64,000 nucleotides of DNA from Raillietiella orientalis (Eukaryota), in assembly GCA_036172245.1 (NCBI GenBank), contig JAYWIR010000019.1, positions 806,001 to 870,000 on the forward strand, read 5' to 3'. Positions 1-61,800 of the stretch are shown here, in pieces; position 1 is the stretch's first letter, and each line of letters opens with the position of its first letter. The notes beneath the pieces are model-generated. The model saw nothing but the letters and a program-made list of their open reading frames with translations. It was not told where the DNA came from and searched no databases. The position numbers and the translations under genes are program-made.

Positions 1-153
1 AAGTGGCAAAGTATTTTACAGATTTGGCGAATGTGGTCTTGCTGGAGTTGCCGATGGTGCGAAGTGTTTCTGAGATGAGCTTTTTTTGATAAGATGCTGA
101 GTATAATGAGTTTGCAGATCCGTGGATCCACTCCGACCATGAGGTTGCGGATT

Positions 154-660
154 ATTACCCGGGTGCGCCGAGGCGTTTATTATGAAGATAAACACACAAA
201 GTGTAGGGTCATCGGCCCTGCAACGTTCTAGAGAGTTCGGAACCTGCCGAATAACGGCACTCAGGCGGGCGAGGTTCGCCTCGGCATCGGAGGGGGAAGG
301 GAAAAACAAAAAGAAAAATAAGAGCAAGAACACTTCACGAAAAAATTGTAGGGTCAGAAATGGGATCACTGTCCGATGGGGTTGCGTGGTTAGCGTTGCG
401 GGTAACTCAAAAACATCCTTCATAACACTTCCATTTTTGGTCTGAAGTGTGGATATGGTGTTGGATGATCCAGTCCTCCGTTGCCACGCTCTGGATCACG
501 AAGACAATCTGCCTCGAGAGCAGGTATTGGTCCGAAGTTAGCGAGGAGGCTTCCCTTTTTTTTTCTTATGGGGAGTCGTTCAAACTCCTTGGAACCAAAG
601 CAGATTTTTCTTCGTTGATGCAGTATAGGAAGATTTGCTTGTGTGCGTGCGAAATTGTGA
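154..660 (-). mobile_element. 3' end (C-terminal ORF2 remnant + 3' UTR) of L1/Tx1-type non-LTR retrotransposon
   Basis: Minus strand shows GTGATCCC, a pyrimidine tract, then AATAAACGCCTCGGCGCACCCGGGTAATAA, the same 3' architecture as other L1-type ends in the window. Confidence 0.7.
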
Positions 661-1399
661 TATATATATATATATTTTAATTGGTCACGCAGCGATGTTC
701 GGAGCGAGAAATCCTGCTTCCGAAGATGTATCTGCGCGTAGGGAGCCGTTCGTAGGCGCATATAAGTGAGCCTCATGTCTGCAGCAGATGAGGCCATGAT
801 GAGCTTTACGAGCGCACGGCGGACCGTGGTCGCGCCTTAAGAGCGGAAGAGTCTTCGGATTCCTGGCTCTTTAGTGAGCTGCTAGCGAGAGCTCTTTTGT
901 TATACTGCGATCGCAAGTCGCCACCACCACTGCTAACTTTGGCGCTGGTGGTAGTGGTGGCGGTAACAGCCTTTGGGTTGCCACTCGTTCATATGGTGAA
1001 GTGCGCTGCCAACTATTCAGCTGCCAGTCGTTCTCCATGCAGAGTTCACCGCTAGTGCTTTGTGCTCAGCGTTCTACCTACTCTTCCCGGCAAGAAGGAT
1101 TGGGATTCTGCAGGCAGGGCAAGAGTCTGCCTTCATGCCAGGGTGCGAGACAAGCAACCACCAGAGGGGGAGGGGGATTAATCATCTGGAGATTTCACTC
1201 TATACTGAGCGAACTCCTGGCGGAGTAATCCCTGCAGCCTCGCTCAACTCTTTGAGCCCAACTCACTAAGTAATCGTTTTTTTCTCTTTTTGCCGATCCA
1301 CGCATAGAAGCGTGGCTGTGCTTCGAAGCGGAAGTCTTGGTGGTAAACGAGCACTCTTCCAACATGACCACGATTCTAAGGCGGTTGTCTGTGAAAAAC

Positions 1400-2360: not shown

Positions 2361-2379
2361 CTAGAAATCAATTGGGCGT

Positions 2380-3594
2380 AACGGGTGGTCGGACACTGAG
2401 TGGGGAGTGTCACGAAACCCGAGGACGCGATTCCCTATATCGGAGCTGTAGAGGACGTGGTCGACCGGCTTGTGGCTGGCTGTTAGCCATAGCAGTCCGA
2501 AATCGTCGGACAGCCGCCGATACGCCGTCCTGCCTCTGAAGTCCCGGGAATAGACGACTTCATCCGGGATGTTGAAATCCCCAACGACGATGACGATGTC
2601 CTTCGGTGCGACCTTTTGTCGGAGGGCTTCGTGGGGCGGCTCCGCGCACCGGTGCTTGTGTTGGTGGGGTCCGTAAACATTCACGAGGAACAGGTGCACG
2701 CTTGCGGACCAGGACAACCGTAAGGCGATGACTCTTCCAGGTACGGGACAGAAGGTTTCCAGGATGGTGTCGGCGAGCTCGTTCTTGATTGAGATCGCCA
2801 CCCCCATGGTGTGCGACTGTTCCTCGCTGGTGAACAGTTGGGCGTTCAATCGCCTTTCCAAGTCAAGGCTGATTTGCTGCCCCATCACGTGGGTTTCTTG
2901 TAGGCACGCGATGCCGTAGTGCTCAATGTTCCGCACTATTCTTCTTCTCCTTGTCTGATCTTGAAGTCCCTTAACATTCCAGGAGGCGATGCTTAGTCTC
3001 CTGGAGGTGGACAAGAACGAGAGGGCATCAAGAGGGTTTATTTTTTGCCCTTTCTGAGCTTCTTCTGTCGGGGAGATCGTTGTCGTCTTCCCGAGGAAGA
3101 AGGAGCGGGCTTCTCGCTACCGGCATCGCTCTCTGCCGGTTTGGTCGGTCATGTCGTGTTCTTCCATCGAGCGTTCGGCCCTGGCTACCTCCTTGGGCGG
3201 AGGGGTCTCCGAGTTGCCCGTCGCGCAGTAGGCCACCTTAGCCTCGAAAAGCTTGGTCTCCAGCTTTTCGCGTTCGCATGCCTCCACCAACTGATTTATG
3301 TCCTGCTGGACCTCGCAGATGCGAGTGAGGATTTGTTCCTGCTGCACCGCGGTCGGTTCCTGGCGGACCTCCTCGACAAGCTTCACCACCTCCTCGGTTA
3401 GCTGGGGGGCCTCCTGCGTCGCCGGGGTGGGTTCATTAACCTCCATTTTATCGCCTTCCTCTGCATTTTCCCTCTCTTCGGCCTTCAGGGAGGGTTCTTG
3501 CTTCTTCACGAGCAACCTCCTCTTGCCGCCTTTTCTCACTTCAACGAAGCCGTCCGCCGAAACCGGAGCGGCCTCCTTCGCCTTCCTCTGCTTC
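2380..3594 (-). mobile_element. L1/Tx1-type ORF1 C-terminus + APE endonuclease; inverted near-identical copy of 28797-30011
   Basis: ORF 2361-3014 has SWNVKGL, CLQETH, GDFN, DHVL and SDH motifs; translations match those at 29377-30011 and 28797-29274. Confidence 0.95.
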
Positions 3595-4700
3595 ATCGCC
3601 CTTTGAGGTTTGATTACCTCCTCCAACAGCCGTTTCCTAACTGGGGATTGACAGATAGGGAGGATAGGGTATCTCAGCGGGCCGAGAGCTAGCCAGAGGC
3701 CATGTGTCGCCTGCTGTGATCTTAGTAAGTCGGCGACGACTCCACCGACCACCATAATTTCAAATTTTGATCAATTGCGCCGCTGCTGTTCCAGACCCCA
3801 CCCCCAGACGGTAGGCTCCTGTACGTGAGTGCCCAGAAATCTGCCCCGCCAACCGGCCGCGAACCACAATTGGTTCGTAGCCGAGGTGCTGACCCTGAAG
3901 CCGTACGTGCCATCGCGCCTATGTCCTGGCAGGGTCTCATAAGCGAAATGCTCGGCACACTGGAGTACATCAATACGAGACACCATCCTAGCCAGGACAG
4001 GCGCCTCGTGCGTGTACTCAGCTGCGCTCCACATCCTGAAGCGCCAATCGGTCCGCGAAGTGGCTATCCTATATACGGCTCGCGACAAGTCAACACAGTC
4101 AAGTCCAGTGTTATACTTGTTGTATCACATGCCAGCATGGGTACGCTTACCGGTGACCGTGGTGTGCCCGGTCTCAAGCTCGTTGCATTGCCACGACCAG
4201 CCCAAGGTGGTTTGGCCGAGACAGGCGCAAACTGTCATCTGAGCACCCGTTGCCGGGTTGTTGCCGCCGTGGATGATCCGCCCTTCGAATCCCTTCGTTC
4301 CAAGGTAGTCAGCAGCATTTACAAGTTCATCCGTAATACCGCTCCCCGCCTTCCATTCTTCGAACAGTCGGCGGAGGTACCCCGCTCGGGACAACCTACC
4401 AAGTCCACTCTCCCAGAGAGCATTGACTATACTTCCGGGAGGCTCTGTGTTAAAAACGTTGTAGGTGTAACCCGCAACGAACACAGCCAGCTCGGCGTAC
4501 TTGGTCCATCGTCCTAGAAATACGATGGGATTCCTCCGAGCATCACCTCTAGCCAACGGGACCTGGTCAAAACAGCTCACCGCCCCCTGGTGGCCGTAGT
4601 CCCACTTTGCTGCCTCCCTTGCCTTTAACGGCGGTGTTTCCAGGCATTGCTGCCCGTCAACAACCGCAAAGGCAAGCGAAACACAACAAGGAACCCTTTC
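3595..4700 (-). pseudogene. ~360-codon non-TE reading frame (2 internal TGA) fused in frame to the ORF1 C-terminus; possible viral origin
   Basis: ORFs 4125-4580, 3771-4088 and 3117-3755 share one frame, separated only by TGA at 4125-4127 and 3771-3773; W/Y/G-rich globular composition; no TE motifs. Confidence 0.55.
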
Positions 4701-4749: not shown

Positions 4750-5067
4750 CCAGGCATATGTCGGCTGCCAGGTGGCCTCATCTTCCAGAAGACGCAAGGA
4801 ACGAGATCTCCGGCATTCAACGCCGGTTCTGAAGGAAAGGAAGGAACAGCAGAAGCGCTTTGGCTTCCCGTGTCCCCTCCCCTCCTCATATTTTTATTTA
4901 TATATATTTTTTATACATGTAGTTGTGGTCTCCTCCCTCCGGTTCCGGATATTCGGATTTACCGACCTGCGTGCCGGGGAGTCCTTCGTTTTTCTGTGGC
5001 CTTTATCCGGGAACCCTGCGCCCGGGTAGTTTAGCAATAAACGCCCCGACGCAGCCGGGTAAGAACC
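4750..5067 (+). mobile_element. 3' terminal fragment of L1/Tx1-type element
   Basis: ...WPH...EISGIQRRF* is shared with 26190-26248; ends AATAAACGCCCCGACGCAGCCGGGTAAGAA. Confidence 0.8.
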
Positions 5068-5599
5068 AGCCAGGCACCCCATTTCTTTCATAAGCAAAAG
5101 ATTTAGGGATGGGCTTCCGGTAGCAAGGACAGTCGCCTAAGGCAAGGAAACCGAATCCGTCCGTCCTACGCAGGTGGCGCGGATGCAGCAGCAGTCGTTT
5201 GCTGCCAGCAGTTCACCTCAGGGCGAGGAAGGCCGGAAGACACCGAGAAAACGCCCACAGCTTCGCACGGAGTCCCAGTCACCAGAGCTGCATCTGTGGC
5301 TCGATGGTTTCCGACTCCAAGGTGCCCAAGTCAGCGCTCTGGTGTAGCGCTGCAAAGTCCAGACTCCACAAAGTCTAGGCCGGGTCCGTCACGAAAGAGT
5401 TGGTAGTGTCGTGCCACGACGTCAACAAGCTGTTCTCTGCTCCTTAGGAAAATCTCGTATAGAGATTGCTGTGCACCACAAGGCTACCCTAAAGCCCACC
5501 GACGAGGTGGGAGTTATCATGCACCATCACGGGAAGAACAAAACTCTTCGGGGGCTGGAAGACGAGAGAGCTGGCAAATGCTGCCACTCGTGATATGGC

Positions 5600-6632
5600 G
5601 ATGGGGCTTCTTCGGTGGGCAGAACTTCGTCTTGCCTCCGAGGAACTCATGGTGCCTCCCATTGTGTGGATGGTTCGTTTTCCACCTTGCTTAGAAATAT
5701 GCCTTCCTGCTCTTCATTCACTAGGGTGAATGAAGAGCTGCATAGGGCTCTTACCAGCGGCCAGACGCCGAAGTGGCAAGTCTCCTGCCGGATCTCAGGA
5801 CGAGAGAAATTGTTAAACGGTTGGACCAAGGGAGAACTGGCGGATGCCACGACCCCGAGTGCCCTCCCGCGAGGACTTGCAAGATAGGGCGAGCTGCTCG
5901 GCATCCCGACGGATGACTTGAAGTGGCCCCGGTTTTAATTGGAGCCAGGATTCTCCCCCTCAAGTGGCAAGAGTCGGCGCTGCTGACGTTGCATTGGGGC
6001 CTGCCTTGCAACGCGCGCTGCTTCCACTGGACCTGGGGGAGAGTAAATCCTGAGTGTGCCCGGTGTGGGGTGAGGGAATCGCTCCCCCACCTTCTTGTTG
6101 ACTGTGCTGCTCTCCGACCCCTGCGGGAACGGTTTGGGACGACCCTAGGGCTCCCTACGGGCAGCGCGCCCAGAGACGCTTTCCGCCTCTTCGTGCGGGA
6201 CGCCCTGCAGCCAGCCGCAGTCGTGGCAGCATTATGCTGCATCCGTGGCATCGTGGCGGCGTGGAGTGATACACGCGACGAAGATGTGGACCAGAACGAG
6301 AGGGACGTCATCCCGTATGCTGTTCGCTTCCTGACGAGAGCTTCTGGATGGCCCCAGCTGGGTACAATTCGGATGGACTTAAAGGGCTTCCTTCGAAGGA
6401 TGGGCCCTCCTCCCAGTGCAGAGTGATCCCTTCCCAGCCCTCCAACTTCTTTTTGTTTTCCTTACTTTTTATCCTTCTTTTTGTTTTCTCCCCCATCCCT
6501 TCCACTGCCGAGGAGAGCCACGTCGGGCTGCGTCCCGGCAGGTCCGGTGTTGTGTGGCCGTTAGTGGGGCCTGGTACCACGTTTGTGGAATGTTTTTTTT
6601 AATAAACGCCCCGGGATTACCCGGGTGGAAAT
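5600..6632 (+). mobile_element. L1/Tx1-type ORF2 C-terminus (CCHC) + 3' UTR
   Basis: ORF 5923-6426 LHWGLPCN...ECARCGVRESLPHLLVDC; terminal AATAAA-hairpin at 6601-6630. Confidence 0.9.
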
Positions 6633-6649: not shown

Positions 6650-7365
6650 AGAGCATTCAGAGTGTGAGGTGGTCAATTCACAGTGTAGAGCGATGGCATC
6701 GAGTTCTGGAGGGGTTGCGTTCGCGAACTGTGGCAGGTGAGGGATTCAATCCCGCATCTGCTTTTGCGGTGCCCTCCAAAGACTGTGTCGGAGACTCACA
6801 ATAGCACAGGCACCAGGAGGATACCAATAGAGACGTGCTGCGGAGGTTCTTCGCGCCGGGAGGCCTCTCGAAGGGCGCAATCATCGCAACCATGGGTTGC
6901 ATTCGCGTCATCGTTTCGGCTCGACAGGTGCTGGTAATCACCAGTCATCGAAAAGGGGTCATGAGGATGGCATCCACCTACATGGAAGCAGCCGCAAGGT
7001 AGACTCACCTGATAGGAGAAGCAAAAGAGATTACCGAAATTTACCGCCTGTTTACGGAGAGTTTGGAACGGCGAACCTGGTAAGCCTTCCTTCCCTTTAT
7101 TTATTTTATTTCATTTTTCAATCCCTCGTTCGCTTACGCTCTGAAACTTTCTTGGTGCTTTTTGTTCTCATCCCGGTGATTACGGAGCGCCACCAAAGGT
7201 CCGCCCCTTTCTTTTCATGTTTTTGTTGTTGTCCGTACCCATTACGGACTTTCCGTTTTCCCGACCTGCGTGCTGGTGGATCCTCCCCTATGTTTCTTTG
7301 TTGTCTTGGTTGTGGACATTGTTCCTGACTTATTCATTTAATAAACGTCCCGACGTGACTGGATT
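6650..7365 (+). mobile_element. Degraded L1/Tx1-type ORF2 C-terminus + 3' UTR
   Basis: RDSIPHLLLRCP and ATMGCIR motifs; AATAAACGTCCCGACGTGACTGG at 7340. Confidence 0.7.
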
Positions 7366-7559
7366 TTAAATTTCAACGTTTGGTGCGAACGTGTTTTTTC
7401 GTCGCTCCCGAAATCGCTGGTTACCTACTTGTGCTTCTTTGATGCTGTGCATCCAGAATAACATAACACCTTCTGAAGGAGTGGAAGTAGGAGTAGCGTC
7501 TGCATCTGCAGCTGCGGAACCGACGGCCGCCCACACTGCCTCTTCCTCGGTGCCAGAGA

Positions 7560-7900
7560 CAAGTTTTGCTTACCCTTTGTGCTTTCCTCTCTAGCTTTCA
7601 ATCGTGATTCCAATCCACTGGATCCATGATGAAAACGCATCTGAAAAATGAACTCCCAGGTACTTGATGTCATCCTCCACAGGGCATACTTCTTCCGTTA
7701 AAACAGAGGGATCCAGATCCCGCTGAGCAACCATTGACATTTGAGGGCATTAATCTTTAAGCCCAGAGTCTTTTCCATCGTCTCTACTATACCAAGAAAC
7801 GTATGCTGATCTCTCTCGTCCTTCAGAAAAAAAGAGAACATCCGCATACTAAGTAAGTAAGCTCATATTTATCTATGGTGATGGTTCGCGCGGCAAATCG
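7560..7900 (-). pseudogene. Non-LTR reverse transcriptase fragment
   Basis: Minus strand YADV...LGLKINALKC...DIKYLGVHF (RT motifs 5-7, frameshifted). Confidence 0.65.
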
Positions 7901-8579: not shown

Positions 8580-9260
8580 CGGAGCCCGAGGTAGTGCTCC
8601 TCGACTACAGCATCAACTGCACTCCGCGTCCGAACTGAGGCCTCCGTCTCCTGACGCTGGAGCGATTGGATCCTGTGAAGCACCAGCAGGTTCGCACCAA
8701 CTGGTGCTCCACAACTTCGCCACAAGTGCAAGAATCCTGACCTGGAGCTGAAACTCCAGCCGCTCCAGCGTCAAGAGGCCAAGACCGCCGTCCCGACGCG
8801 GAGCTCACAACTCCGCAGGCCTGACCCAGAGCCTCTCTCAGCTCCAAAGGGCGACGTTCACTTGGTGGGGGGCAAACAGAAAGCAAGGGCAAAAAAGGGG
8901 GCCATGAGCGTGTTCCACACCGTGGTCCATTCCAGCAAGAAAAGCTTACCATCCAAGAACGGGCCAATCGCCTTCTCATCCTTTTGGAGGCAGCTGGACC
9001 ATGCCTACGCCAGGGAATATTGCCCCTGCGGCACACCGAGGTGCTTAAGGTACCGCACCGTGGGGATCCCCAAGAGGAACCAGTCGTGCTGCCCTGCCCT
9101 CGCCGAACCAACTGCTACCACGAACGACTTCGCACTGTTCATCTCCAGCCTTGTTCCGCATCGTAGTAGCTCGAAAAAATTTTCCAGCACCTTAGCCGAG
9201 GTGGACATGGGGAGTAGCAGCAAAAGATCGTTCGCATACGCGACACGGCCGGTTTACCTG
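8580..9260 (-). pseudogene. L1/Tx1-type RT fragment
   Basis: AYANDLLL...LEMNSAKS...RYLKHLGVP, homologous to 51795-52430. Confidence 0.85.
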
Positions 9261-9775
9261 CGCACCTGCAACACGTTCACTACCCTATTCTTCCATCGCA
9301 CCGGTATTGGAAGAACAGGGTTCTTTCCGCGTACGTTTTGTTGCCGTTTGCGGCGTACACGTAGCTAACGACGAGGTCGAGAGTCGCACCACCTGAGAAT
9401 CAGCTGGTCGACCCGATCGTCGTGACCTCGAGAGCAAAACAGGTGTCAAAGGAGCAGGACAAACGACCACAGAAACATTAGCAACGGAAGAGGACCAAAG
9501 TTCCCTTTCCTCAGAAAACTGCGGTGATGAAACAGCCAAATGACCAGAAAGCCGGCGATGAGGAAGGTTGGCAATTTGTTAACAAGAAAAAGACCGGTAA
9601 CAAAAATAATAACTCCAAGACGTAAAAAATGGTTCGAAAACAAAAGAATCAAATCGTCCGCGAAGGTAGAGTTACAATCGCTGAACATCTCATACCAAAC
9701 ACAAGAACACATTTGATGCCTTTCGAAGTTGTGTTCCCGTAAACATCTTATTTAACTATTTTTTCAATTATCAAA

Positions 9776-12335: not shown

Positions 12336-12409
12336 TAGAAAAAATCACCAGAACCTTAATTCACCTATTTTCTTTCAAAAAAAGCCAATTGCTACGACCT
12401 TTATGAAGA

Positions 12410-16070: not shown

Positions 16071-16074
16071 CAGG

Positions 16075-50586: not shown

Positions 50587-52708
50587 TTCTCACTTCGTTG
50601 CGCCGGGGCGTTTATTCTTCCGAATAAAACGAGAGTCTGTGGCTTAACTGGTGGTCCAGCTACGCACGAATAAACAACATTAAGCCTGCCGGGTCACCGG
50701 CTCGCAGTTCGGTACGGTCGACCACGACAACAAAGGAAGTCGGGACAAAACAAAAAGATATAACGAACACTAAAAAAATATATATAAAAACAAGACCTGG
50801 GGGGCACGGGAAGGGATCACAGTCTGCTGCGGAGCCAATTCATCCTTTCTGGGATGCCGGCAAGCTGTTCTTGGATTGGTGAATCCAGATGGGTCCATCC
50901 TGTCGCCGTCCTCATAAATTCGCCTGCGCATTGGACGGCACCCTTATCGCTTGGTCCTCCCGTTGGCTTGCTTCAAGCAGCGACGATCCCGCGAAAGCAG
51001 CACAGAGCTGCTAACGAGGTCGCAGGCCGAAGGGCGTCGGCAACGAAGAGGGCTTTCAATGCGTCCCTGGGGTTGCCGCAGGGGATTCCGGTTGCCGCGG
51101 CGAAGCGGTTCCAAAGGGGCCCAATAGCAACACAATCTATAAGGGGGTAGGGGAGGAACTCCCGTTCTCCACAACTCAAACAATTAGGTTTTACAGTTCC
51201 CCAGGTCCAATGGTGTCGGCGGGCGTTTCAGGGGAGTCCCCAATGAAGCAACAGTAGCGCCGACTCCTGCCATTTTAAAAAGAGGGTTGAAGTGTTCATG
51301 AGCACCGGGGGTCACTTCAAATCTTCCGGCGGAACTTCTAGCAGCTCACCCCAGCGCAAAAGTCCAATAGGGGTGGTAATCCGGGCCGCAGTATCGCAGA
51401 GAACCCCCGTTTTCCATTCCCCGATCTTTTTCTCCGTACCGGAGATTTTCGCGTCCACTTCCCATGCCGCCGCACTATTGCTGTCCAGATGGTCCACGAG
51501 GGAAGACAGCATTGCAGCGAGGGAAGTTTTCCTTGCCCACGCTCGTCTTTCGGGGTTCTCCAGGATCTCCCGGAGCGTGAGGCGTTCGTTGCGCGCAAAC
51601 AGTTGTCTGCGATATTGCTCGGCGCGTTGCTCGTTACTCCTCGCCCACGTGTAAACGGTTTCCTGGAGCCAGGCAGTTCCGTTAACGGGGCGACAAAAGA
51701 GCCATCCCGCGTTCATCCTCATCAGATCAGTCATCCTCCACCGCTGCAAACCGCAGTGGGCGACTTGGCGGCGACGACACAGTGCAAGGAAGGATCACAG
51801 TCCCACCTTGCCGGTGGCCACTTTGACGAGGAGACTTGCAGGCTCGCACCAGCTCCTGCTCCAATACTTCGCCACTAGGGCGAGTAACCGGAACTGGAGC
51901 TGGAGCTCCAGCCGCTCCAGCGTCAGGAGGCCGAGACCGCCGTCCCGACCCGTAGCGCTCAAGTCCACAAGCCGGAACCGGGCCCTTCCTCTGCCCCACA
52001 GGGCAATCCTTAGAGGGTCCTTCGTCCGCTTTTTTTGTCTCTGCAGTGGGGGACAAACAAAAAGTAGGGAATGGACGAGGGGGAGCGCGAACGCGTTCCA
52101 AACCGCGGCCCGTTCAGGCAGGAAAAACCTGCCGCCTCGGAACGGGTCGATCGCCGTCTGTACCTTCTGAAGGCAGCTGGACCACGCATCCGAAGGGAGA
52201 TAATCCCTCATCGGTACACCGAGGTACTTGAAGTACCTCACCGTGGGGATCCCCAAACGGACCCAGTTCTGCTGCCCTGCCCACGCCGCACCAACTGGTA
52301 TCACGGACGACTTCGCTCTGTTCACCGTTAATCCTGTTCCCCGACTCAGCAGGTCAAAGAACTCCTCGACCGCCGAAGCCGGGGTGGACATAGGGAGCAG
52401 CAGCAGAAGGTCGTCCGCGTACGCTGAAACGGCCGGCGTACCGGGGCAGTCGTGCGGCAGGTGCGCCTGAGTTTACCTGTACGCTCTCAGTACCAACTCG
52501 AAGTAGGTACTGAAGAGCAAGGGACTCAGGCTGTCTCCCTGCCGTATCTCACGCCGCACCGGCACGCCGTGCACGGTTTGCCCGCTGAAGAAAACGTTGA
52601 TAAGCGCGTCGCGCCAGCTGGAGCGCAGGTAGGCCAACAAAGAGGCCGGGAAGCCCAAGCGTTCCAGAAGCTCCAACAGGAGATTCTGGTCGACGCAGTC
52701 GAATGCTT
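50587..52708 (-). mobile_element. L1/Tx1-type RT-CCHC-3' UTR
   Basis: AFDCVDQ, RQGDSLSPLLF, AYADD, KYLGVP, RDGGLG, LHWGLP; 3' AATAAACGCCCCGGCGCAAC...TGAGAA. Confidence 0.93.
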
Positions 52709-52719
52709 TGTGCCTGTAC

Positions 52720-53235
52720 GCAAGAACGCCTCCCGAGTGGGATGTCTCACAACTCCTGCTCCCAGAAGGTGCTCCAGCGATCGGGGAGGAGGAGAAAAAG
52801 TTTCTCGACTAGCCATTCACGATGGGCGAGATCATCTCGGCCATCGGAAAGCTCAAGAGGCGCAAGGCTCCAGGGGAGGACGGCCTGCCCGCGGAGTTTT
52901 ATCAAACCTTCGCGGCTGAGCTAACCACCCTGGTACATCAACTCACCTTGCTGATACGCGAGACAGGTGACGTTCCCGCCTCGTTTTGTTCGGAAAAGGT
53001 GCGGCTCCTCCCTAAGGAAGGGGATCTGAGGAGCATGAACAACTGGCGTCCCATCACAGAGGCGGAGCAGAGCGTTTTGGCAGAGCGTAAGGTTTGGGCA
53101 GAGCGTTTGGGACGGGTTGCAAACGTTTTCATTAGCCCGGAACAGACATGTGCTGTTCCCGGGCGAAGCATGGAGGCGAACCTATTCCACGCTTCCACAT
53201 GGTTAGAGCTCCAACAAGGAAAGGCTTTATTGAGC
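52720..53235 (+). pseudogene. Inverted RT N-terminal segment (probable 5' inversion of the 50587-52708 element)
   Basis: KAPGEDGLPAEFY, WRPIT, EQTCAVPGRSMEAN. Confidence 0.88.
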
Positions 53236-53239
53236 AACC

Positions 53240-53690
53240 GGAATTCTGGTGAGGCCGTCGCAACTTTTCCTCGTTTGCCGACCCCTGGGCACAGGTCGGC
53301 GTCGATGAAGACATGGTCGATGCTGCGGGCCATTCCCTTAGCGTCCACCAACAAGTTGCGCGTGCGCATGGCAGCGCACAACTCGTTGGCCGTGCGTTCC
53401 TGTGCTTCGGGCTCACCTGACAGCAGACGGAGATTAAAATCCCCCTCCATTAGGTGAGCATTCCGCACGTTCGTTTCTGCCAGCCAATCGCGCTTTAGCC
53501 TTAACTTCTCCCTGCCTGCGATTCGATTGCAGGAGATTTGCCACTTCGGCGTCCGGCTGCTATGAAGCGCCCTTCTCAGGAAGGGCATCTCCGTAGCGAG
53601 GGGTGTTCTCTCCGCCCACGTGCAGCTCGCGGGAAATTCCAGTATTTCCCTCAGAGTGCAGCGGGCGTATATGCCGGCCCGCACGCAGTA
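53240..53690 (-). pseudogene. Fused APE fragment and post-RT fragment of L1/Tx1-type elements
   Basis: GDFNLRLLSG...IDHVFID (53240-53500); LREILE...PKWQISC..IAGREKL (53500-53690). Confidence 0.8.
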
Positions 53691-56072
53691 CCTCGCCAAA
53701 CTCTGGGCTGAGCTGCTGGGATGGGTAGCGGAATCCGTGGTCAGTCCGGAACAGACTTCGGCTGTTCCCGGACGAACCATGGAGGCCAACCTGTTCCTCG
53801 CCAGCACCTTTTGGCAGTTGCAACAACGCTAGGCGCAGCTAGGTCGGGAGAGTCCTGGACTCTCCACTGACCAAGGGGAAGGAAGCCAGGGGGAAGATGC
53901 GGCTCCCGGAGCCCTTGCGGTCGCACTCGATTAGCGAGAAGCTTTACACTGCGTCGACCAGGAACTCCCTCTGGAACTCTTGAAACGCATGGGATTTCCG
54001 GCCGACTTCCTGCCTACCTGCGCTCCTGCTGGCGCTTCGCGTTAATTAATATCAATTTCAGCGGCCGGCACGTGTACGGCGTGCCGGTTCGTCGCGGCAT
54101 CCGGCAGGGTGACAGCCTGAGTCCCCTGCTTTTCAGCATCTACTTTCAGTTGGTGCTGAGAGCATACAGGGAGACTTTGGCAACCCTGCCGAGCTCGTGT
54201 CCCGGCACGCCTGCCGTGTCGGCCTATGCCGACGACCTCCTGCCTCTGCTTCCTGGGTCCACACCGGCATCGGCGCTCGATGATTTCTTCAAGTTGCTGC
54301 GCCGTGGGACATGCCTCGAGGTGAACAGGACGAAGTCGTCGATCATCTTCTCTGACTCGTCGCAGGCAGGACGGTCGGACCGGATCCTCTTGAGGATCCC
54401 CACGGGCGGGTACACCAAGTACCTTGGCGTTCCGTTGGGGGAATTCTGCATTGCAGAAGCCTGGTCCGACCGTCTTCAAAAGGTGGAGTTAGCGATCGGC
54501 CCGTTCCGGGACGGCAAGTTTTACTTGCAGGAACCGGCCGCGGTGTGGAACGCCTTTGCGGCCCCCCTCCTTCACCCCCTACTTTTTGTGTGTTCCGCCC
54601 CTCCCCAAATTAGGACAAGGACAAAGGGCCTCATTAGAAACACCCTCTGGGACAATCGGAGGCCCCGCGTCCGGCTTAAAGACTTGTGGGCTCCACGCAG
54701 GGACGGTGGACTCCTGACGTTGGAGCGCATGGAGCGACAGCTCCAATTTAGAAAACTTGCCCTTGTGGCAAAGTTTTGGACAGCACCCTGGTGTGCTCCA
54801 TTGAAACTCCTCGCCCACAGGGCAACCGGCTGCCACGGATTGACCTCAATCCTGGTAGCCAACGACCGTAGCCTGAACCATTGTGGGTTTTAGCTACGCG
54901 ATCTGGTTGCCCTGGTGAGCGAGAATCCGTGTATCTCCTGCATCCCCGCGGACTGGACTACCTGGCTCCAGGAGTCCGTTTCCGCGTGGGCCAAAATTAG
55001 CGGCTGCAGCGATGAGGACTTCTCCTGCCTCCGTAGAGGCAGGTACGCTGGTCAGCCCCTGCGGGAGATCGTTTCCAACCCACAAAAGCTTTTCTGGGCT
55101 TCATTCACCTCCCTTGCCCCCGTGCTGCCCTCACTCAGAGAAGCCAGGGACAGCCAAGAGGGGGCTTCTTACGAAGTGTCCTGCCTCATCGGAGGCAGGA
55201 AAAAACTGATCAAGGCGTGGACGTCCCGGGAACTAGAGGACGCTACAACCCCGAGTGTCCCGCCAAATGGAATTGTGCGCTGGGGCGAGCTGCTCGGCAT
55301 GCCTCCGGAGGAGGTGAAGTGGCCCCCGGCGTATTGGGACAGTGACACCCTCCCTTGGATTGACAGGAGACGGACTGCTTGTGCTCCATTGGGGACTTTT
55401 GAGCAGAGCACGCCTGTCTCACTAGACATTGGGGAGATTGGATGCCCATTGTACAGAATGTGGGGAAAGGGAGACCTTCCCCCACTTACTAATCGAATGT
55501 GTTGGCCTCCGCCACGCGTGGGATCGACTCTCGTCGGCCATAAACGTAGCGGTGGGCGACCCTAAAAATATTTTTCGTCTCCTCCTGATGCGGAACTGCG
55601 TGTCAGGTGCCGCGTGTGTTGAAGTTCTCTGCTGCATACGAGGAATATTGAACAAGTGGAACGCGTCGATAAGAGGCCGCAGTAGTCGGAATGCCATCCA
55701 CTGGGCGGTCATCTCCATGGAGAAGGCTTCCCGTTGGCGCCGGCTAAGGAAAATTCTGCCAGCACTTGTCTGTATCCAGAACCAGATGCAGAGGCCCCCC
55801 ACGGCGTACTGTAATCCCTTCCCTTCCCTCCCATCCCCCATAAACATTATCCTCCAAGGGTTTTCCTTTTTTTTTTGTTTTTTCTCTTTTTCCCGTCCCC
55901 TTCGCCAGTGGAGAGGACGACCTTACCGGCATACTGGTCGGAAAGGACAGGTGCATAAAACAGTATGAACAATGTGTTCTGACTGGAACACAAATACAGA
56001 CGTCAGGACTATATTATAAAATAGATAATTGTACAATTTTTAATAATAAAAGCCCCGGCTTACCAGGGTGAA
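53690..56072 (+). mobile_element. 5'-truncated L1/Tx1-type element (RT, CCHC, 3' UTR)
   Basis: GIRQGDSLSPLLF, AYADD, KYLGVP, CTECGERETFPHLLIEC; ends AATAAAAGCCCCGGCTTACCAGGGTGAAGA. Confidence 0.95.
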
Positions 56073-56075
56073 GAT

Positions 56076-56201
56076 CCACTGCCGAGGAGAGTCACACCGG
56101 GCTGCGTCCCAGCAGGTCCGGTGTTGTGTGGCCATTAGTGGGGCCTCGTACCACGTTCTGAAGAGTTTTTTCAATAAACGCTCCGGCGTACCCGGGTGAC
56201 A
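56076..56201 (+). mobile_element. ~125-bp 3' UTR-only copy related to 6501-6630
   Basis: CCACTGCCGAGGAGAG...GGGCTGCGTCCC...GTACCACGTT shared; ends AATAAACGCTCCGGCGTACCCGGGTGACAA. Confidence 0.85.
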
Positions 56202-58620
56202 ACGCCAAATCCGTGGACCGGGTCAGGCGGTCCATGGGGAACTGCTCGCAGAACTCCCAGACCGATTCCTTAAAAAGCTCCCAGTCCTGGAGTCTTTGGA
56301 GTGTGACGCCTCTCAGGAATTCGCGAAGATGTTCCTTCGCACCTGAGAGTCGCGTCAAGTCCCCCGGCAGACACCACGCCCTGGATGGCGGCCCCTTGTC
56401 GCGCGGGAGCATCTCGAAAATTAACCGGGAATGGTCCGACAGCGTCGGCGCAAGCTTCCCCCGTTTGCCGACCCGTGAACACAGGTCAGCGTCGAGCAAG
56501 ACGTGGTCGATGCTGTGGACCATTCCCCTCTCACCCGCAAACAAGTTGCGCGCGCGCATGGCGGCGCACAACTCGTTCATCGCGTTCTCCTGTGCTTGGA
56601 GCTAACCTGATAGCAGGCATTGAAGTTTATCACTTGGTCACGCCGGGGTGTTTATTTATAATAAACCGGTCAGGGACAATGTCCCTAACCAACACAACGA
56701 CAGAGAGCAAAGAGAAGTTACCGACACGCAGGCCGAGTAAACAAACCGCTCGCAACATGGGAGGAGTAAGGGGATAACATAAACAACATAAACGGGAGGG
56801 AAGGGTAACGGATCTTTGGCGAGGCTCCGTACTCACGGGGATTCAAACAAGGAGCACCTGGAATGTTACGGGGACTAAGGGGACGAATGTGGAAAAAAAA
56901 AAGAAACTAACTCATGCAGGGTGGGGCAAGGATTGCCGGGTGGGCCACTGCGGAGCGTGTGAAAACCGGCGGTGTATATCGGCGAGATCCCTTCTTGACT
57001 CCTGACAAATGAAGCCATCTGGCGGTTGCTTCTATGTAGGAGGATGCTTTGCCGATCACCTCTTGGTGCTGCCCGTTGATTAACAGCGCCTGAAGGGCTG
57101 ACACTATGGCGCGTATGCAACCGATGGTTGCAATCCTGGCACTTGTGGACAGCCCGCTCGGCGTGAAGAATCGTCGCAAGTCTCTTGCGGTGTCCACAGG
57201 ATGCAAGAGTGCTGTTGTTAGCCTCCTCCAGGGTCCTTGTAGGACACCGCAGTCCAGAAGTAGGTGCGGGTTCTACTCCGTTGTCCCGCAGACGCAAGTC
57301 TCCCGGAGACACGATGCCGACGCTGGTTGCACTAAAAAACCCCAGTGACCAAGAACAGCACGGCTTGTTTTCATACGAGGGGGAGCAGCGAACTGTCTAG
57401 AAACTGTGGAGGAACTACAAGTTCTTCGGGGTTGACACCAAGTTCCACACCCCACCGAAAGAGTCCCTTCGCAGTAACACGAGGAGTGGAGGCGTCCGCC
57501 AACTCACTCGTCTTTCAGGCGCCAAGGAGTTTGGTTTTTCCCGCTATCGTGCAGGAAACCTCCCACCTCGCCGGTTGGCAACTGTCGCTTCTTGCCCTGA
57601 GGGTAGACAGCGCTGGGGAGAGAGGCGTAGCAGGCAAGATAGAAAATTTCACCTCGTGCTGCAGTATCTCTTCCAAAGGTCGCGGAAGAAGATGGCAGGA
57701 GGCGAAGATCTTCATGGAGCATTCCTTGGAACGCCGCCCAGGATTCAACAGACTCCTGCCGCCAAGCGTCGAAGTTCATTGGACGGCAGGAGATCCACGA
57801 GTGGGCGTATAGAAGTTCGGCCAATTGCCGCAAGGAATAGCCGAAACCTCGCTTCCTGTATTAGGTGCCCGGAAACAGCCAGAGCAGTCCTCCGCTGCCG
57901 GTGCATCTCCTCAGGAGGATGCGTGCAGGCACACACGGGGGGCTGTCCACAGCTGGGCATACAGTGCCAGCAGTCGGAACTGCACCTGCAGTCCGATTCG
58001 CTCCATTGTCAGGATACCCAAACCAGCATCCCGACGTAGAGCCGTCAAGTCTTTCAGGAGGATCCTGGATCTCGCCGGACCCCAAAAAGCGTTCCTGAGC
58101 AGGCGTTGAGCCCGCTGTTTTGGTAGATTGAAGTTTATCACCCGGTCACGCCGGGGCAGGTAGATTGAAGTCTCCCCCTATCAGGTGAGCCTTCCACACG
58201 TTCGTGTCAGCCAGCCAGTCGCGCTTCAGGGTTTCCAGCAACACTGTGCTTTCGCGGTAACCCTGCTTGCCGATGGGGGCGAACACGTTTGTGACGATCA
58301 GTTCGATCGAGTCGGACCACCTGAGAATCAGCTGGCCGACCCGACCGTCGTCATCAAAGCGCACGCCCTTCACGGCCGCGTCGACGGCTGGCTTCACGAA
58401 GGACGCGACCCCACAGGAGTTGCGGACGCCGTATTGCCGGTACAACCGACCCCCCGCGATCGTCTCGATCTCCTGGACGTCTGCCGCGGTGATCATGTGG
58501 ATCTCCTGCAACAGGGCCAGGTCGAACTCTCGCAGGGTGTCGGCCGTGTCCCGTCTGCTGCCGTCGTCGCGCAGCCCGTTGACATTCCTACAGGCCACGC
58601 GGATACGACGGCGACAGGCG
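56202..58620 (-). mobile_element. APE domain (58159-58620 and 56202-56626) split at GDFN by a 1.5-kb 3' fragment (56627-58121) and a 24-bp hairpin insert (58135-58158)
   Basis: CRNVNGL, LQEIH, GGDFN on one side; IDHVLLD, SDH on the other; GGTAGATTGAAGT duplicated at 58122-58134 and 58159-58171. Confidence 0.85.
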
Positions 58621-60249
58621 AACCCAGGGTTTACTCCTGGGAAAGTGGCGCTGCGGCGTCCACCACCTGTTGGGGCGGGACGCTAGGAGTATGAGGGAGT
58701 GAAGCTTCGGGCACCTGATCCCCCTCCTGAATGGGTGCCTGTGTGTCCGGCGGCTCCCACGAACGCACCCTCGTGTAGCGCGGACAGTGTTCAAAGAGAT
58801 TCGTGACCTCCCTCATTAGGATGCGGACGGTTCTTCAGCATTCCTTGTGCATCGAAAAAAGGATCTGCGACGACGCGGTGGTGCCGACGTGATGCGCTTT
58901 TCCGTCGTCAGTCTCTCTAGCGTCATCAAGACAGAGCGCTGCGCGTCACCGAGGACAACATTGACACTGGCGAAGGAGCTCGGTGGACGCCGAGGGAGAG
59001 GTGGTGATGGGACTCTGAAAGAGGATCCTCGAAGGCATCGGCGGCATCTCTGGCCTCTCGGAAGGCTGCGCAGGCTGCCGGCTGCCAAGCAGCACCTTTC
59101 GTGGCGGGTGATTCCGTAGCCCTTCGGATACTGAGCCGGGCTCAATGAGGACGCCGTCCGGGTAAAGGGGCTGTCCCTCTCAGCGCACCTGGAGGGAGTC
59201 GGAGCCGACGCGGCGTCTCCAGCAAAGGGTGCGCGTCGTGACGGCTTACATCGCAGAAAAGGGGAGCAGAAAAGACCAGCTGACGATGGAGAAGCTCGGG
59301 CACTCAGAAGACTCCTGTCTCTGCGGATAGGAGAACGGGAAATTCTGCGTGGGGAGCGTCCCGGACGGGGGCAGTGGCAGGTCGAGAGAGGCAGCACCCC
59401 CGTGACACGAGGGATGCTGATAGAAACATCCGAAGGTTCAAGCCCCCGGGAAGCCACCTCACCATTGACCAAAGACGCTAATAGTCCTCTTCCTCGAGTG
59501 AAATCCTGGATTGAAAGACTGGTAGAGAATGGAGAATTGGAATCCATGGAAACCAGAATTCACTCCGGAATCAAAGCATGCCGCATTTCCCGGATCCATG
59601 CGACCTCAACCAGAGGATTGTGGGATAAAGAAAAAAATCCAGAAGGAGTGGTGACTCCTGAACGTACGCACGCTGGGTGCGCTCCCTCGGCGACGTGAGT
59701 CCGGGAGGGAAATCCCTGCGAAATCCCTGTCGAAAGACCTATCAGGTGCTTCAACATTGAGAGCCCGCAACTTCGCCCATCTTATGATGATGCTCCTGAT
59801 GTTGAGGGGGCGGTAGGGCGTACCATGGTGTTGTCGAGGAACTTTTTTTTTCCTTCGAACATTCCTGTTAAAATCTCTGTTTTCATTTTCTTCTGCATGC
59901 CATTCAGCACCTTCAGCGCAGTCCAGCCCTGGAGCAGCGTCAGAACATGGGAAAACGTAGAGCTGGGTTACTGTCCCCACAGGCTTTCCAGAGTTCATCT
60001 CAGCTATTACCTGTCCAATGTTTCAGTCGGGAGTTACTAAGAATGCTTCCGTGGTAATGCATTAGGAGGTCATCCTCAGCATCTGGTGGTAAGTCGCTCC
60101 TACACATCTCTCTGCCAACCGCTAACAGTTCACGTTGCGGATCCCGTGGCTCTTGGCGGCCTCGTGCAGTGCGTCGTCTTGGGTTCATATGTTTCTTCAT
60201 TTCCTCATGGATGCTGCCTCTGATGATCAGGTGCTACTCATTGGTAGCT

Positions 60250-61800
60250 CGATGCTTCCAGAGTTCGCGAGTCATGTGGTTGAATCTTCCTATTATCCTT
60301 TTGATCTCAAGACACAGTCGCATTCTTTGGCTGTTGCTACTCTTGGCGCACTGTCTGCAGTCAAGGATTCACGTTCCTAGCCTTTGAATCATCCATTTCT
60401 AGGTCTCTCAAGGGACTCTAACGAAATAAGGTATCACCACGGCCAGCTCCCCCTGACACAGTTCTTCACCTCGAGGCATCATCTTGAATTGGTAATTCAT
60501 CACCGGTGACTGTTGCTTCTTCCACGTGAGATCGATGTTCCTCGGTCTCTGTACTTCCCTATTAAGGCTGATGTCAGGCCTCTCGAGTTGTCAGTCAACT
60601 CCGCATAAACTGCATGTGCCACATAAGGCCATTCGTCCCATTTTCTGGTGAGATTCAGGAGTTTTCGTGCATCCATGTCTTCCAAGTCTTGGTCCAGCAA
60701 CTTCATCCCGGTCCCACCTTTCTCTCACAAGCGACATAAGACTTTTAGCCGTACCCGTGGCTTGCACTCTCTCTGCAGGATCTTCCTTCGAAGCTGCTCT
60801 ACTTTCATCCTCGTTCTCTTATCTAGTCGACAGAAGACCGCTCCGAAGAGCACCTTGGAAAGAAGAACTTCCTTCGACAAGTTGACCTGCAGTTTCGTGC
60901 TGGAGTCCGCGCGGATGTACTTCATTGCAAGAATTTCTGTCCACAGCGTTTGCGAAGCTGAGGTTTCTCCGGTGTGGATTCCCAGGTAACCTAACTTTAT
61001 CCACCACTCTGAGACTTTCTTTCGTTAGTGTGGAAAGATCCTGGTTTCCGATGGACAACAGTTTTCCATTGCTGTGACCACTTGCAGAAATGCGTGCTTT
61101 TCGTCTTTCATAAAGAAGAGAAGATCATCCGTATGCTAGATGGGTCAGGTGGTCGTCTCCGATTGTGAGTACTTGGAGGCGGGAACTTTTCGGTCACAAT
61201 CGACGACACAGCTCCCATGTAAATCACGAACAGCATCGGACTTAGGGAGTCCTTGACGAACACCACTTTCTTTGAGGATTGCCTTCCCCTTGTATCCGTT
61301 GATTCGGATTTCGAAATGCACTTTTCTGAGGGTCATCTGCACATACTCCAGGAAGCACTGTGGATAGATGTTGACGCAGGAACCTCGAGCTACTTTCCTG
61401 TTTCCGTAGGCTAAGATTGCCTCGAAGCCATATATAAACCCATATATACTTATATATGGGTTTACCTACCATAGAACATCTTCCAGCTTTCCAGATACGT
61501 CGAAAGTCACCGGAAGGCGTTATCACTGAAGCAATGTCCCATTCCAACTTCCCCCGCATTATCGGCAAGCTTTACGCCTGCAGGACTCTCGAAAATTCTA
61601 AAATGCTTGCTTTTGGTGATTTGAGGTCTTTTGAGGACATTATATGGATCCTTAGAACAATCAGATTCAGCTTCATGATTAGGTGATAGATAAGACTGCT
61701 TTTCGATTTTTCTTTATTGGGACAACGATGCTTTTCCAAATGTGTTTTCAAAATTCGGTGCAAAAGGGGCTTGCTTTTGGGGGGGAGGAACGATGATTTT
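60250..61800 (-). pseudogene. Degraded non-LTR (L1-like) RT region
   Basis: IRING...SGVRQG, AYG/YTDD-like remnant near 61125-61135, VRLPG, CKPRVRLKVLC (cf. PRVRLKDLW). Confidence 0.65.

Follow-up and report, generated by a model that had tools for sequence, protein, structure and literature searches.

A LINE-rich island adjoining a host gene in the Raillietiella orientalis genome: probable repeat island or piRNA cluster?

The stretch of DNA analysed here (the window, 64,000 nucleotides) consists of about 61 kb rich in LINE fragments, followed by a host gene. The first-pass annotation had taken the 61 kb for a transposon and virus trap resembling a dual-strand piRNA cluster. The question is whether its sequence calls for such a function, or whether the locus is an ordinary repeat island. 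We examined in turn the composition of the island, its elements, and its virus-like content.

Composition and boundary of the island

Pfam was run with curated cut-offs on 238 stop-to-stop ORFs, each of at least 90 aa. Five of the 238 scored above the cut-offs and all were LINE-type: Exo_endo_phos was found in ORFs 2364-3116 (-), 29275-30219 (+), and 58149-58682 (-), and RVT_1 in ORFs 17922-18605 (-) and 53871-54890 (+). No LTR-retrotransposon or DNA-transposon domain was detected by Pfam in any of the 238 ORFs, and self-blastn of the window found no long direct repeat pairs with >80% identity, in agreement with the earlier statement that no LTR element was recognisable.

Using Pfam, profile, and tblastn searches, we placed 26 LINE fragments in positions 1-61,800, 14 on the plus strand and 12 on the minus strand. 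The L1-like fragments were searched with a profile of 13 public ORF2 proteins, an iterated profile, and tblastn. LINE sequence with hard evidence amounted to 21,389 nt (34.6% of positions 1-61,800), and the hand-drawn element spans to 33,340 nt (54%), with 16.3 kb on the plus and 17.1 kb on the minus strand; the share of the island without an element assignment was 46-65%, and this share may include content other than LINEs. The first-pass annotation had described the region as almost wholly truncated, nested non-LTR fragments on both strands. Truncation, nesting, and the use of both strands were borne out by the 26 fragments, but "almost wholly" overstated a coverage of 34.6-54%. The longest block without a placed element spans 10.2 kb (30,220-40,448), and six-frame read-through of 30,220-34,721 and 34,720-37,421 gave no Pfam family in any of the 12 frames. 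AT-rich stretches without a placed element were also seen at 9.5-12.5 kb and 47.5-48.5 kb.

Nesting was observed in two places: copy A of a restriction-like-endonuclease LINE carries a 234-bp insert relative to copy B, and copy B, which is Utopia-like, lies inside a U2 fragment. Recent activity was indicated by a young L1-like twin pair in inverted orientation (2380-3770 versus 28767-30011, 99.2% identity by self-blastn). Diverged copies with 66-80% identity and distinct junctions occur across the window. In a DNA run (X1), 458 contigs fell on 21 of the 30 bins of 44-64 kb, a depth that does not equal copy number; they were mostly of 85-95% likeness, 414 of the 458 being below 95%, and no contig fell on the gene bins at 61,343-63,343. 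These contigs indicated that diverged copies of the LINE families in the window are numerous in the run.

The abrupt end at an ordinary host gene, claimed at first reading, was confirmed. The last LINE match ends at 61,363, the GC content falls from about 0.5 to 0.33-0.38 past 61.5 kb, and about 0.5 kb separates the island end from an AT-rich, multi-exon coiled-coil gene on the plus strand (62146-64000), recognised from ORFs, translations, and GT/AG borders judged by eye. Its exon-like ORFs lie at 62146-62367, 62516-62668, 63003-63461, 63668-63808, and 63877-64000 (+). Pfam gave nothing above cut-off for this gene, and an atlas search gave only a generic coiled-coil lead. Three non-TE decayed ORFs had also been reported within the island, of which one weak candidate was recovered: a minus-strand ORF with one in-frame stop (3774-4700), whose DUF1990-like stretch at 3774-4124 scored 22.6 bits against a Pfam cut-off of 23 (20.1 bits on read-through).

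L1-like elements

The reverse transcriptase of ORF 53871-54890 matched human L1 ORF2p in the PDB (five chains, E 1.1e-06 to 3.5e-06) and R2 at 1.3e-04. Both an apurinic-type N-terminal endonuclease and a reverse transcriptase were present, as indicated by Exo_endo_phos in three ORFs, RVT_1, and the 13-protein ORF2 profile. The best match of the endonuclease ORF among 1.84 billion representatives had 34% identity (E 7.1e-10). A motif scan showed that ten LINE 3' ends belonging to several families have a terminal motif in common.

In the left part of the window, this motif, AATAAACG followed by CCTCGGCGCACCCGGGTAA, marks a LINE 3' end at 151-201 (-). The 5' part of an L1-like LINE at 2380-3770 (-) comprises the C-terminal part of ORF1 and the endonuclease (Exo_endo_phos, 56.1 bits; self-blastn) and is broken directly 3' of the SDH motif, as seen in the junction view. 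A 3' UTR piece at 4770-5062 (+), with tblastx similarity to 26186-26464, has the motif at its end, and a second one at 6764-7366 (+), homologous to 56619-57252 on the opposite strand, has a degenerate motif. Between them, a 5'-truncated element at 5494-6627 (+) retains the zinc-knuckle region of the ORF2 C-terminus and the 3' end (profile match at 5950-6147; tblastn to 5.7e-43; motif at 6601). Reverse-transcriptase fragments were found at 7594-7862 (-), with an IKYLGV motif (profile and iterated profile), and at 8686-9244 (-) (iterated profile E 1.9e-17 and 8e-09; tblastn 57% identity to 51798-52472). A Walker-like motif on the plus strand of 7594-7862 was rejected as spurious. A 330-bp copy consisting of the 3' UTR only lies at 12590-12906 (+) (73% identity to 55752-56081; motif scan). 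Further along are a 5'-truncated element with the ORF2 C-terminus and 3' end at 25702-26460 (+), which abuts the endonuclease domain termed E below (tblastx, motif, and tblastn), and a young 5' part at 27915-30219 (+) with the endonuclease (Exo_endo_phos, 55.2 bits) and an ORF1 with CCHC knuckles (zf-CCHC, 19.9 bits, under cut-off).

The right part begins with an N-terminal endonuclease scrap at 40449-40544 (+) (iterated profile E 1.1e-06) and a C-terminal ORF2 fragment at 41696-42312 (-) (tblastn E 2.8e-16). An ORF1-like region followed by an endonuclease N-terminus occupies 42850-44883 (+) (iterated profile E 3.2e-19 at 44656-44862; tblastn with the ORF1 at 46.4 kb); that ORF1-like fragment itself, at 46426-47500 (+), contains a CCHC knuckle (zf-CCHC E 0.0072, under cut-off; tblastn E 4.3e-09). 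An ORF2 C-terminus with its 3' region lies between them at 45136-46068 (-) (tblastn E 1.6e-26; 73% identity to 50531-51253). Two 5'-truncated elements extend from the reverse transcriptase to the 3' end, at 50590-52712 (-) (profile E 1.1e-14 and 9.6e-12; motif at 50616) and at 53686-56199 (+) (RVT_1, 34.4 bits; human L1 ORF2p in the PDB), and a reverse-transcriptase fragment is located between them at 52813-53250 (+) (profile E 2e-28). The 3' UTR of the element at 53686-56199 contains a 330-bp copy of a different family (55752-56081). Another 5'-truncated element extends from the C-terminal part of ORF2 to the 3' end at 56630-58120 (-) (tblastn; motif at 56656), with an endonuclease fragment at 58158-58643 (-) (Exo_endo_phos, 26.3 bits; profile E 4.5e-16). 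A nest had been proposed at 56.6-58.6 kb, for which follow-up gave no confirmation. The last reverse-transcriptase fragment before the boundary lies at 60743-61363 (-) (iterated profile E 1.4e-16 and 4.2e-10).

Restriction-like-endonuclease elements and the Rep-like insert

The second group of elements matched R2 proteins in the PDB through the reverse transcriptase of copy A (E 1.2e-22) and the endonuclease region of copy B (E 6.4e-10). Copy A (16121-19960, -) contains putative zinc fingers, the reverse transcriptase (PDB match at 17922-18605), and the endonuclease domain (tblastn). Copy B is 4.7 kb long (20836-25543, -), and its endonuclease-domain ORF is intact (295 aa, 20916-21800). Copy C (13054-16120, +) comprises a putative zinc-finger N-terminus, the reverse transcriptase, and the beginning of the C-terminal domain (copies A and B as tblastn queries, E 4.6e-10, 2.3e-10, and 0.005; profile match at 14932-15012). 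The endonuclease domain E (26440-27006, +; translation, and tblastn E 8e-15 to residues 95-273 of copy B) is probably the continuation of copy C, and the element C + E, split by a 10.3-kb block, is then probably a third case of nesting; the C-terminal ORF of copy A extends over the C/E junction, which makes the position of that junction ambiguous. A putative zinc-finger N-terminal fragment, D, lies at 49320-50389 (+) (tblastn E 2.1e-15 and 1.2e-13). The N-terminal zinc-finger-like motifs were seen in translations (GLLNHQIWH and GLRNHSRWH-type), with Pfam zf-C2H2 at only E 0.2; Utopia has one to three.

Utopia elements are non-LTR retrotransposons of the NeSL clade that encode a restriction-like endonuclease and target U2 snRNA genes, and Kojima and Jurka (2015, PMC4640811) placed their insertion point between U2 nt 38 and 39. 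Immediately 5' of copy B we found U2 nt 1-37 (25544-25580, -; an exact 21-mer, and Rfam U2 at 28.5 bits, below the gathering score of 46), and immediately 3' of it U2 nt 39-58 (20816-20835, -; sequence comparison). Among the copies, only B sits at this site. Thus, of the L1/Tx1 and Utopia composition given by the first-pass annotation, the former stood as L1-like on the endonuclease, the reverse transcriptase, and the L1 ORF2p match, and the latter held for copy B on its U2 flanks; such flanks are absent from copies A, C/E, and D.

The insert in copy A (16775-17008, +), absent from copy B, has a GC content of 0.37 versus 0.46 in its flanks and possibly a 7-bp target duplication (ACCTACA). A custom profile built from 61 IMG/VR Reps (length 292) matched ORF 16830-17126 (+) alone among 2,387 ORFs (E 6.3e-5), over profile positions 139-181, which correspond to the Walker A region of the SF3 helicase; the reversed window gave a best E of 4.9, and ten shuffled windows best E values from 0.43 to 12. 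When the Reps were used in tblastn, the same place was hit with a best E of 6e-6, and 11 of the 61 Reps had E<1, ten of them <0.1. The matching stretch comprises about 45 residues around Walker A. Around it, six frames showed no cluster of HUH endonuclease motifs I-III, and Walker B and motif C were absent from the piece. Pfam Rep and helicase models did not recognise it (the weak P-loop matches were nSTAND3 and G-alpha, E 0.14), a PDB search returned no match, and IMG/VR held no close relative. The "clear" CRESS Rep fragment reported earlier is accordingly reduced to a 234-bp, Rep-like Walker A piece.

Origin of the island and comparison with known systems

We consider it probable (about 0.6) that the 61 kb are an ordinary repeat island of the R. 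orientalis genome and of a common kind, namely a LINE graveyard adjoining a host gene. Two kinds of LINE would have retrotransposed repeatedly into older copies, one insertion landing in a U2 snRNA fragment: L1-like elements, which are rich in GC and encode an apurinic-type endonuclease, and Utopia/R2-like elements, which are lower in GC and encode a restriction-like one. Most copies would have been 5'-truncated on arrival or broken later by newer insertions, leaving a two-strand mosaic, and a 234-bp scrap similar to the helicase P-loop region in the Rep genes of small circular DNA viruses would have been caught in one Utopia/R2-like copy. The element types, orientations, insert, U2 flanks, and boundary were observed directly, and from the sequence we infer the order of the insertion events. 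The island presumably grew either because the host pays no price when an element lands in a dead repeat or because dead repeats are preferred targets of some of these LINEs. The sequence can be explained without a special trap or memory function, and a passive origin may be compatible with later use as a source of small RNAs.

Dual-strand clusters are recognised by a ping-pong signature (10-nt overlap) among small RNAs that derive from both strands. That the island is a working cluster of this type, transcribed from both strands, with LINE debris and the Rep-like scrap giving rise to piRNAs for the silencing of matching elements, and perhaps of a related virus, is a tentative reading that we regard as rather unlikely. 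The near-equal LINE orientations (a feature not specific to piRNA clusters), the virus-like piece within a retroelement, and the sharp edge at a gene are consistent with it, as is the enrichment of virus-derived elements in small-RNA-defined clusters that ter Horst et al. described for 28 of 48 arthropod genomes (10.1101/396382). However, mixed-orientation LINE debris, a tiny virus-like piece, and an edge gene fit a piRNA cluster and any repeat island equally well, and no feature that we can read from the DNA sets the locus apart from the latter. The virus-like content is a single piece that neither Pfam nor the PDB search recognised. The neighbouring coiled-coil gene has the island behind it, its transcription leading in the other direction, and therefore its read-through cannot supply the island. 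The many diverged copies of the same LINE families in run X1 also weigh against the cluster, and the distribution of its contigs between the LINE part and the gene bins hints weakly at a similar composition across the genome.

A further reading, improbable in our estimate, places the island in a cluster that builds itself through target-specific LINEs homing into other LINE copies, as in the Zepp type of green algae; the island might then mark pericentromeric or centromeric chromatin. The 3' terminal motif common to several families, the site specificity of one family for U2 nt 38/39, and the bounding of the block between C and E by the 3' ends of two different elements point in this direction, but no two insertions in the window were found to share their exact target nucleotide in a LINE, the flanks that follow the 3' end at 50,590 and the one at 56,199 meet shared homologous sequence at unequal distances, and neither the unconfirmed nest nor the ambiguous C/E junction helps the case. 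Doubtful to a slightly greater degree is a combination of the two readings, in which LINEs homing into LINE copies or fixed sites such as U2 enlarge a two-strand locus that is also transcribed into piRNAs. If true, the targeting habit of the elements rather than chance insertion would build a silencing memory of the host, with stray virus cDNA swept in. Assembly artefacts are a very unlikely source of parts of the mosaic. A fold-back chimera could have made the inverted repeat at 34830-38535, whose arms (34830-35973 and 37392-38535; 99.9% identity) differ at about one of 1,144 positions, are sharply bordered, and lie only 1.4 kb apart; six-frame Pfam found no protein domain in it, and palindromes of this sort are known to arise as artefacts of long reads. 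Elsewhere the window consists of the diverged copies with distinct junctions described above, which assemblers do not invent.

The preferred reading, an ordinary repeat island, can be set beside known systems. In the account of ter Horst et al., piRNA clusters are defined by small-RNA mapping (proTRAC), operationally as loci to which small RNAs of 24-32 nt with a 1U bias map densely and uniquely, and in arthropods are usually found at TE-rich loci with virus-derived pieces (10.1101/396382); mosquito (Aedes) clusters are described as rich in virus-derived elements (PMC7161354, 10.1101/2022.08.22.504762). The window is likewise rich in transposon fragments, carries one virus-derived piece, and adjoins a gene, but it is known from sequence alone, its virus-like piece is single, its elements have no antisense orientation bias, and its flanking gene points away. 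Zepp and ZeppL are L1 clusters of green algae in which LINEs are nested in LINEs. The island resembles them in LINE-in-LINE nesting on a large scale, and differs in that several unrelated LINE groups take part and that no target nucleotide was found to have been used twice.

Animal genomes are known to contain endogenous Rep fragments derived from circular Rep-encoding single-stranded DNA viruses. The present piece is similarly short, helicase-like, and contained in a retrotransposon copy, whereas it covers only the surroundings of Walker A, lacks the other Rep motifs, and has no close IMG/VR relative. Compared with L1-group LINEs, of which human L1 ORF2p (8C8J, 8SXT) provides the nearest solved relatives, the L1-like elements are very divergent in sequence, and their 3' ends show no visible poly(A) but a fixed GC-rich motif that follows AATAAACG. 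They have in common with that group an EEP-fold (endonuclease/exonuclease/phosphatase) nuclease that precedes a reverse transcriptase, a zinc knuckle at the C-terminus, an ORF1 with CCHC knuckles, and the 5' truncation of most copies. Unlike Utopia, copies A, C/E, and D are not flanked by U2 sequence, and with just 20 nt of U2 on its 3' side copy B is not surrounded by an intact U2 gene. Copy B nevertheless shares with Utopia a reverse transcriptase resembling that of R2, a CCHC motif with a restriction-like endonuclease at the C-terminus, possibly the N-terminal zinc fingers, and, with U2 nt 1-37 on one side and nt 39-58 on the other, the published insertion site (PMC4640811).

LINE content and limits of the island

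All 238 stop-to-stop ORFs of at least 90 aa in the window were scanned against Pfam with the curated cut-offs, and the five that exceeded them all carried LINE domains, namely Exo_endo_phos at 2364-3116 (-), 29275-30219 (+), and 58149-58682 (-), and RVT_1 at 17922-18605 (-) and 53871-54890 (+). A third RVT_1 match at 52476-52808 (25.0 bits) remained below the cut-off of 29.6, as did two zf-CCHC matches among these ORFs. At E values up to 0.01, LTR-retrotransposon, DNA-transposon, and viral Pfam families matched 0 of the 238 ORFs, in agreement with the first-pass annotation, which had recognised no LTR element. The Pfam scan of shorter ORFs (55-89 aa) covered the first 300 of 393, those up to 49.2 kb, and gave nothing real (no match in 150 ORFs, then one sub-threshold match in 150).

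Thirteen long public LINE ORF2 proteins, used as tblastn queries, detected seven segments of the window; a profile of these proteins, iterated with the window's own matches, added further segments, and tblastn with the proteins of better-preserved copies linked additional pieces. Within the island (1-61,800), 21,389 nt (34.6%) were supported by a match (domain, profile, or tblastn) or by homology within the window to a sequence so matched, a figure that leaves out the 2.3-kb 5' part of the Utopia-like copy B, which was defined by its U2 flank. When gaps within elements were bridged by hand, 26 fragments accounted for 33,340 nt (54%; plus strand, 16,272 nt; minus strand, 17,089 nt). This tally per strand confirmed that truncated non-LTR fragments lie on both strands, whereas the earlier description of the island as made almost wholly of them was not borne out at either coverage.

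The biggest block without element assignment was 30,220-40,448. A six-frame read-through of 30,220-37,421, with X at stops, gave Pfam families in none of 12 frames, and a coding signal sought in the repeat pair at 31.1-32.1 and 40.1-41.1 kb was not found. The inverted repeat at 34830-38535 likewise held a protein domain in no frame; its arms (34830-35973 and 37392-38535) were 99.9% identical over 1,144 bp, with sharp borders and a 1.4-kb spacer. Such a structure could be a source of hairpin RNA, or could have arisen by inverted duplication very recently or through a fold-back in the assembly.

The GC content was approximately 0.50-0.59 across most of 1-60 kb, lower (0.43-0.45) in the 12-22 kb block, and dropped to 0.33-0.38 beyond 61.5 kb. 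The final LINE match was a reverse-transcriptase fragment at 60,743-61,363 (-), detected by the iterated profile, and from 62,146 (+) onwards a coiled-coil protein was represented by five exon-like ORFs, whose GT/AG borders were judged by eye. The island ends at a host gene, as had been proposed, and this gene is transcribed away from it. None of the host exons exceeded the Pfam cut-offs, and a host exon gave only a generic coiled-coil lead in the protein atlas. A perfect 14-bp palindrome at approximately 61434-61463 (TAAACCCATATATA, a 2-nt spacer, and the reverse complement) lies past the last LINE fragment, in the transition to the host gene. Two AT-rich stretches within the GC-rich island (9500-12500 and 47500-48500; GC 0.33-0.40), both without an assigned element, resembled the host gene region in composition, and the bin at 47,336-48,002 had a very deep cover of contigs from X1, a DNA run matched to 44-64 kb, probably due to simple A/T-rich repeats. 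Scans of the window for tRNA genes and for Rfam families at the gathering score found none, and the tandem repeats were small, being three rows (two arrays) of two copies with a 25-bp period.

Two groups of LINEs and their insertions

In one group, which was GC-rich, CCHC knuckles were present in ORF1, and the elements further encoded an apurinic-type endonuclease, a reverse transcriptase, and, at the C-terminus, a zinc knuckle. For the reverse-transcriptase ORF at 53871-54890, the nearest solved structure was human L1 ORF2p (approximately 1e-06, versus 1.3e-04 for R2). Together with the domain order, this bears out the L1-like part of the L1/Tx1 assignment made earlier. A young element of this group was represented by its 5' part at 27915-30219 (+). 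When the endonuclease ORF of the youngest element was compared with 1.84 billion representative proteins, 369 matched at E <=0.001 and none at 1e-10; the best showed 34% identity (E 7.1e-10), and the relatives were remote LINE endonucleases only. In a word-indexed search against longer proteins, no match was obtained with this ORF, with the restriction-like-endonuclease ORF, or with the Rep-like ORF described later.

A 5' part of an L1-like LINE also occurred as an inverted twin 25 kb apart (2380-3621 and 28767-30011, 99.2%), in which the break in the minus copy comes a few bases past the SDH motif ending the endonuclease and the plus copy continues. In addition, one terminal motif recurred at ten LINE 3' ends of visibly different families. 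It consists of AATAAA[C/A]G and, after it, a near-palindrome rich in GC (roughly CCCCGGCGYAMCCGGGTRA); a poly(A) was not visible. It was located at 181, 50616, and 56656 on the minus strand and at 5036, 6601, 7340, 12880, 26435, 56045, and 56173 on the plus strand. This commonality suggests a common 3' recognition signal.

The other group, R2/Utopia-like, encoded a restriction-like endonuclease and was lower in GC content. R2 proteins in the PDB were matched by the reverse transcriptase at 17922-18605 (-) with E 1.2e-22; for the ORF at 20916-21800 (-), the match was to the R2 C-terminal endonuclease region (E 6.4e-10), and in the protein atlas, the endonuclease-domain ORF was related only to an "arthropod hypothetical protein". 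The copies assigned to this group were C (13.05-16.1 kb, +), A (16.1-19.96 kb, -), B (20.8-25.5 kb, -), fragment E (26.44-27.0 kb, +), and D (49.3-50.4 kb, +). A relaxed-score Rfam scan gave a single match, to U2, at a sub-threshold 28.5 bits: nt 1 to approximately 37 of U2, almost intact, at 25,580-25,544 (-). Nucleotides 39-58 of U2, with one mismatch, were found at 20,835-20,816, directly past the 3' UTR of copy B, and this pattern was matched in none of 100 shuffles. In the passages of Kojima and Jurka (PMC4640811) that describe Utopia, these restriction-like-endonuclease elements have a downstream U2 flank that starts from nt 39, as does copy B. Because its U2 flanks fit the Utopia site, we regard copy B (20816-25580, -) as a Utopia-like element of 4.7 kb that is nested in a fragment of U2. 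The earlier naming of Utopia elements thus holds for copy B, whereas U2 flanks are missing at the other copies. Copy B was full length with both target flanks; it was followed by just 20 nt of U2, which implies either a fragmentary U2 target or loss of the remainder.

In the C-terminal region, copy C (13054-16120) stops at approximately residue 73; the co-oriented E (26440-27006), 10.3 kb away, begins at approximately residue 92. The intervening sequence holds copies A and B, the U2 pieces, and the 3' end of an L1-like element. To judge from this arrangement, C and E look like one element split by later insertions; the junction is ambiguous owing to its overlap with the C-terminal ORF of copy A. 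Both edges of the 10.3-kb block were 3' ends of different elements. Nesting was also seen at 55,752-56,081, where the 3' UTR of one family holds a 330-bp copy of a different family. A nest proposed at 56.6-58.6 kb, in which the element at 56.6-58.1 kb would interrupt an endonuclease copy at 58.2 kb, was not confirmed, and a search of the window for one target nucleotide reused by different LINEs showed no case.

The Rep-like insert and a possible gene remnant

From 123 IMG/VR loci chosen by Rep motif pattern, 61 Rep ORFs were extracted. With tblastn, 11 of the 61 matched one place, approximately 16,860-17,063 (+), at E <1 (10 of these <0.1; best E 6e-6), with the Walker A region aligned every time. 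A profile of the 61 Reps gave a sole match among 2,387 ORFs, at 16830-17126 (E 6.3e-5; profile positions 139-181 of 292), the best E values of the controls being 4.9 for the reversed window and 0.43 to 12 for 10 block-shuffled windows. The match falls within an insert in copy A placed at approximately 16,775-17,008, copy A having a net extra of approximately 246 bp relative to copy B between 16,767 and 17,030. The GC content of the insert was 0.37, compared with 0.46 in its flanks, and a possible 7-bp duplication (ACCTACA) was seen, so short a repeat being weak evidence. The HUH motif, Walker B, and motif C were all absent from the Rep-like piece. In Pfam it drew nSTAND3 and G-alpha only (E 0.14), and its ORF had no PDB match, no IMG/VR relative, nothing in the protein index, and no NCBIfam match of note. 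Taken together, the insert is a probable short Rep-derived scrap; the Walker A match supports the CRESS Rep fragment annotated at first pass, but a piece so short and without matches in curated databases is not a "clear" one. Two other motif candidates were rejected: the Walker-like GDGSRGKS at 7.88 kb was antisense to a LINE reverse transcriptase, and HLQG at 22.5 kb was antisense to a zinc-finger ORF.

Three decayed non-TE ORFs had also been listed, and we found a sole candidate, at 3774-4700 (-): a frame of 309 codons, interrupted by one stop, in which a stretch of 35 residues resembles DUF1990. This stretch scored 22.6 bits against the Pfam cut-off of 23 and 20.1 bits in read-through, and was not significant once the number of scanned ORFs was allowed for. 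The frame may be a piece of a decayed non-TE gene or a chance match.

Repeat island or piRNA cluster

The definition of piRNA clusters rests on mapped small RNAs, according to a passage in 10.1101/396382. The features tested here, namely mixed orientation, one virus-like scrap, and an edge at a gene, do not separate a piRNA cluster from a repeat island. On 44-64 kb, 458 X1 contigs covered 21 of 30 bins, with 0 contigs in 61,343-63,343. Their likeness to the window was >=99% for 12, 95-99% for 32, 90-95% for 237, and <90% for 177, contig depth not being equal to copy number. That so many contigs are diverged shows that these LINE families are present in numerous further copies in the X1 organism. 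This is a weak hint towards the condition named at first pass as refuting a piRNA cluster, namely a composition that is similar genome-wide. The most economical reading of the sequence is an ordinary graveyard of LINEs and Utopia-like elements with one captured virus-like scrap. A role of the island as a source of small RNAs has roughly three chances in ten, and none of the present results supports it.

The main use of the window is as a worked example, in that a two-strand mosaic rich in TEs and holding a virus scrap does not by itself constitute evidence of a piRNA cluster. Of local interest are the full-length Utopia-like copy with U2 flanks, the terminal motif shared among LINEs, and the Rep-like piece in a retroelement. 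If small RNAs were found to originate here, the island would add one to the arthropod loci that give rise to piRNAs and would be unusual only in being built of LINEs without LTR elements, which probably mirrors the repeat repertoire of the genome.
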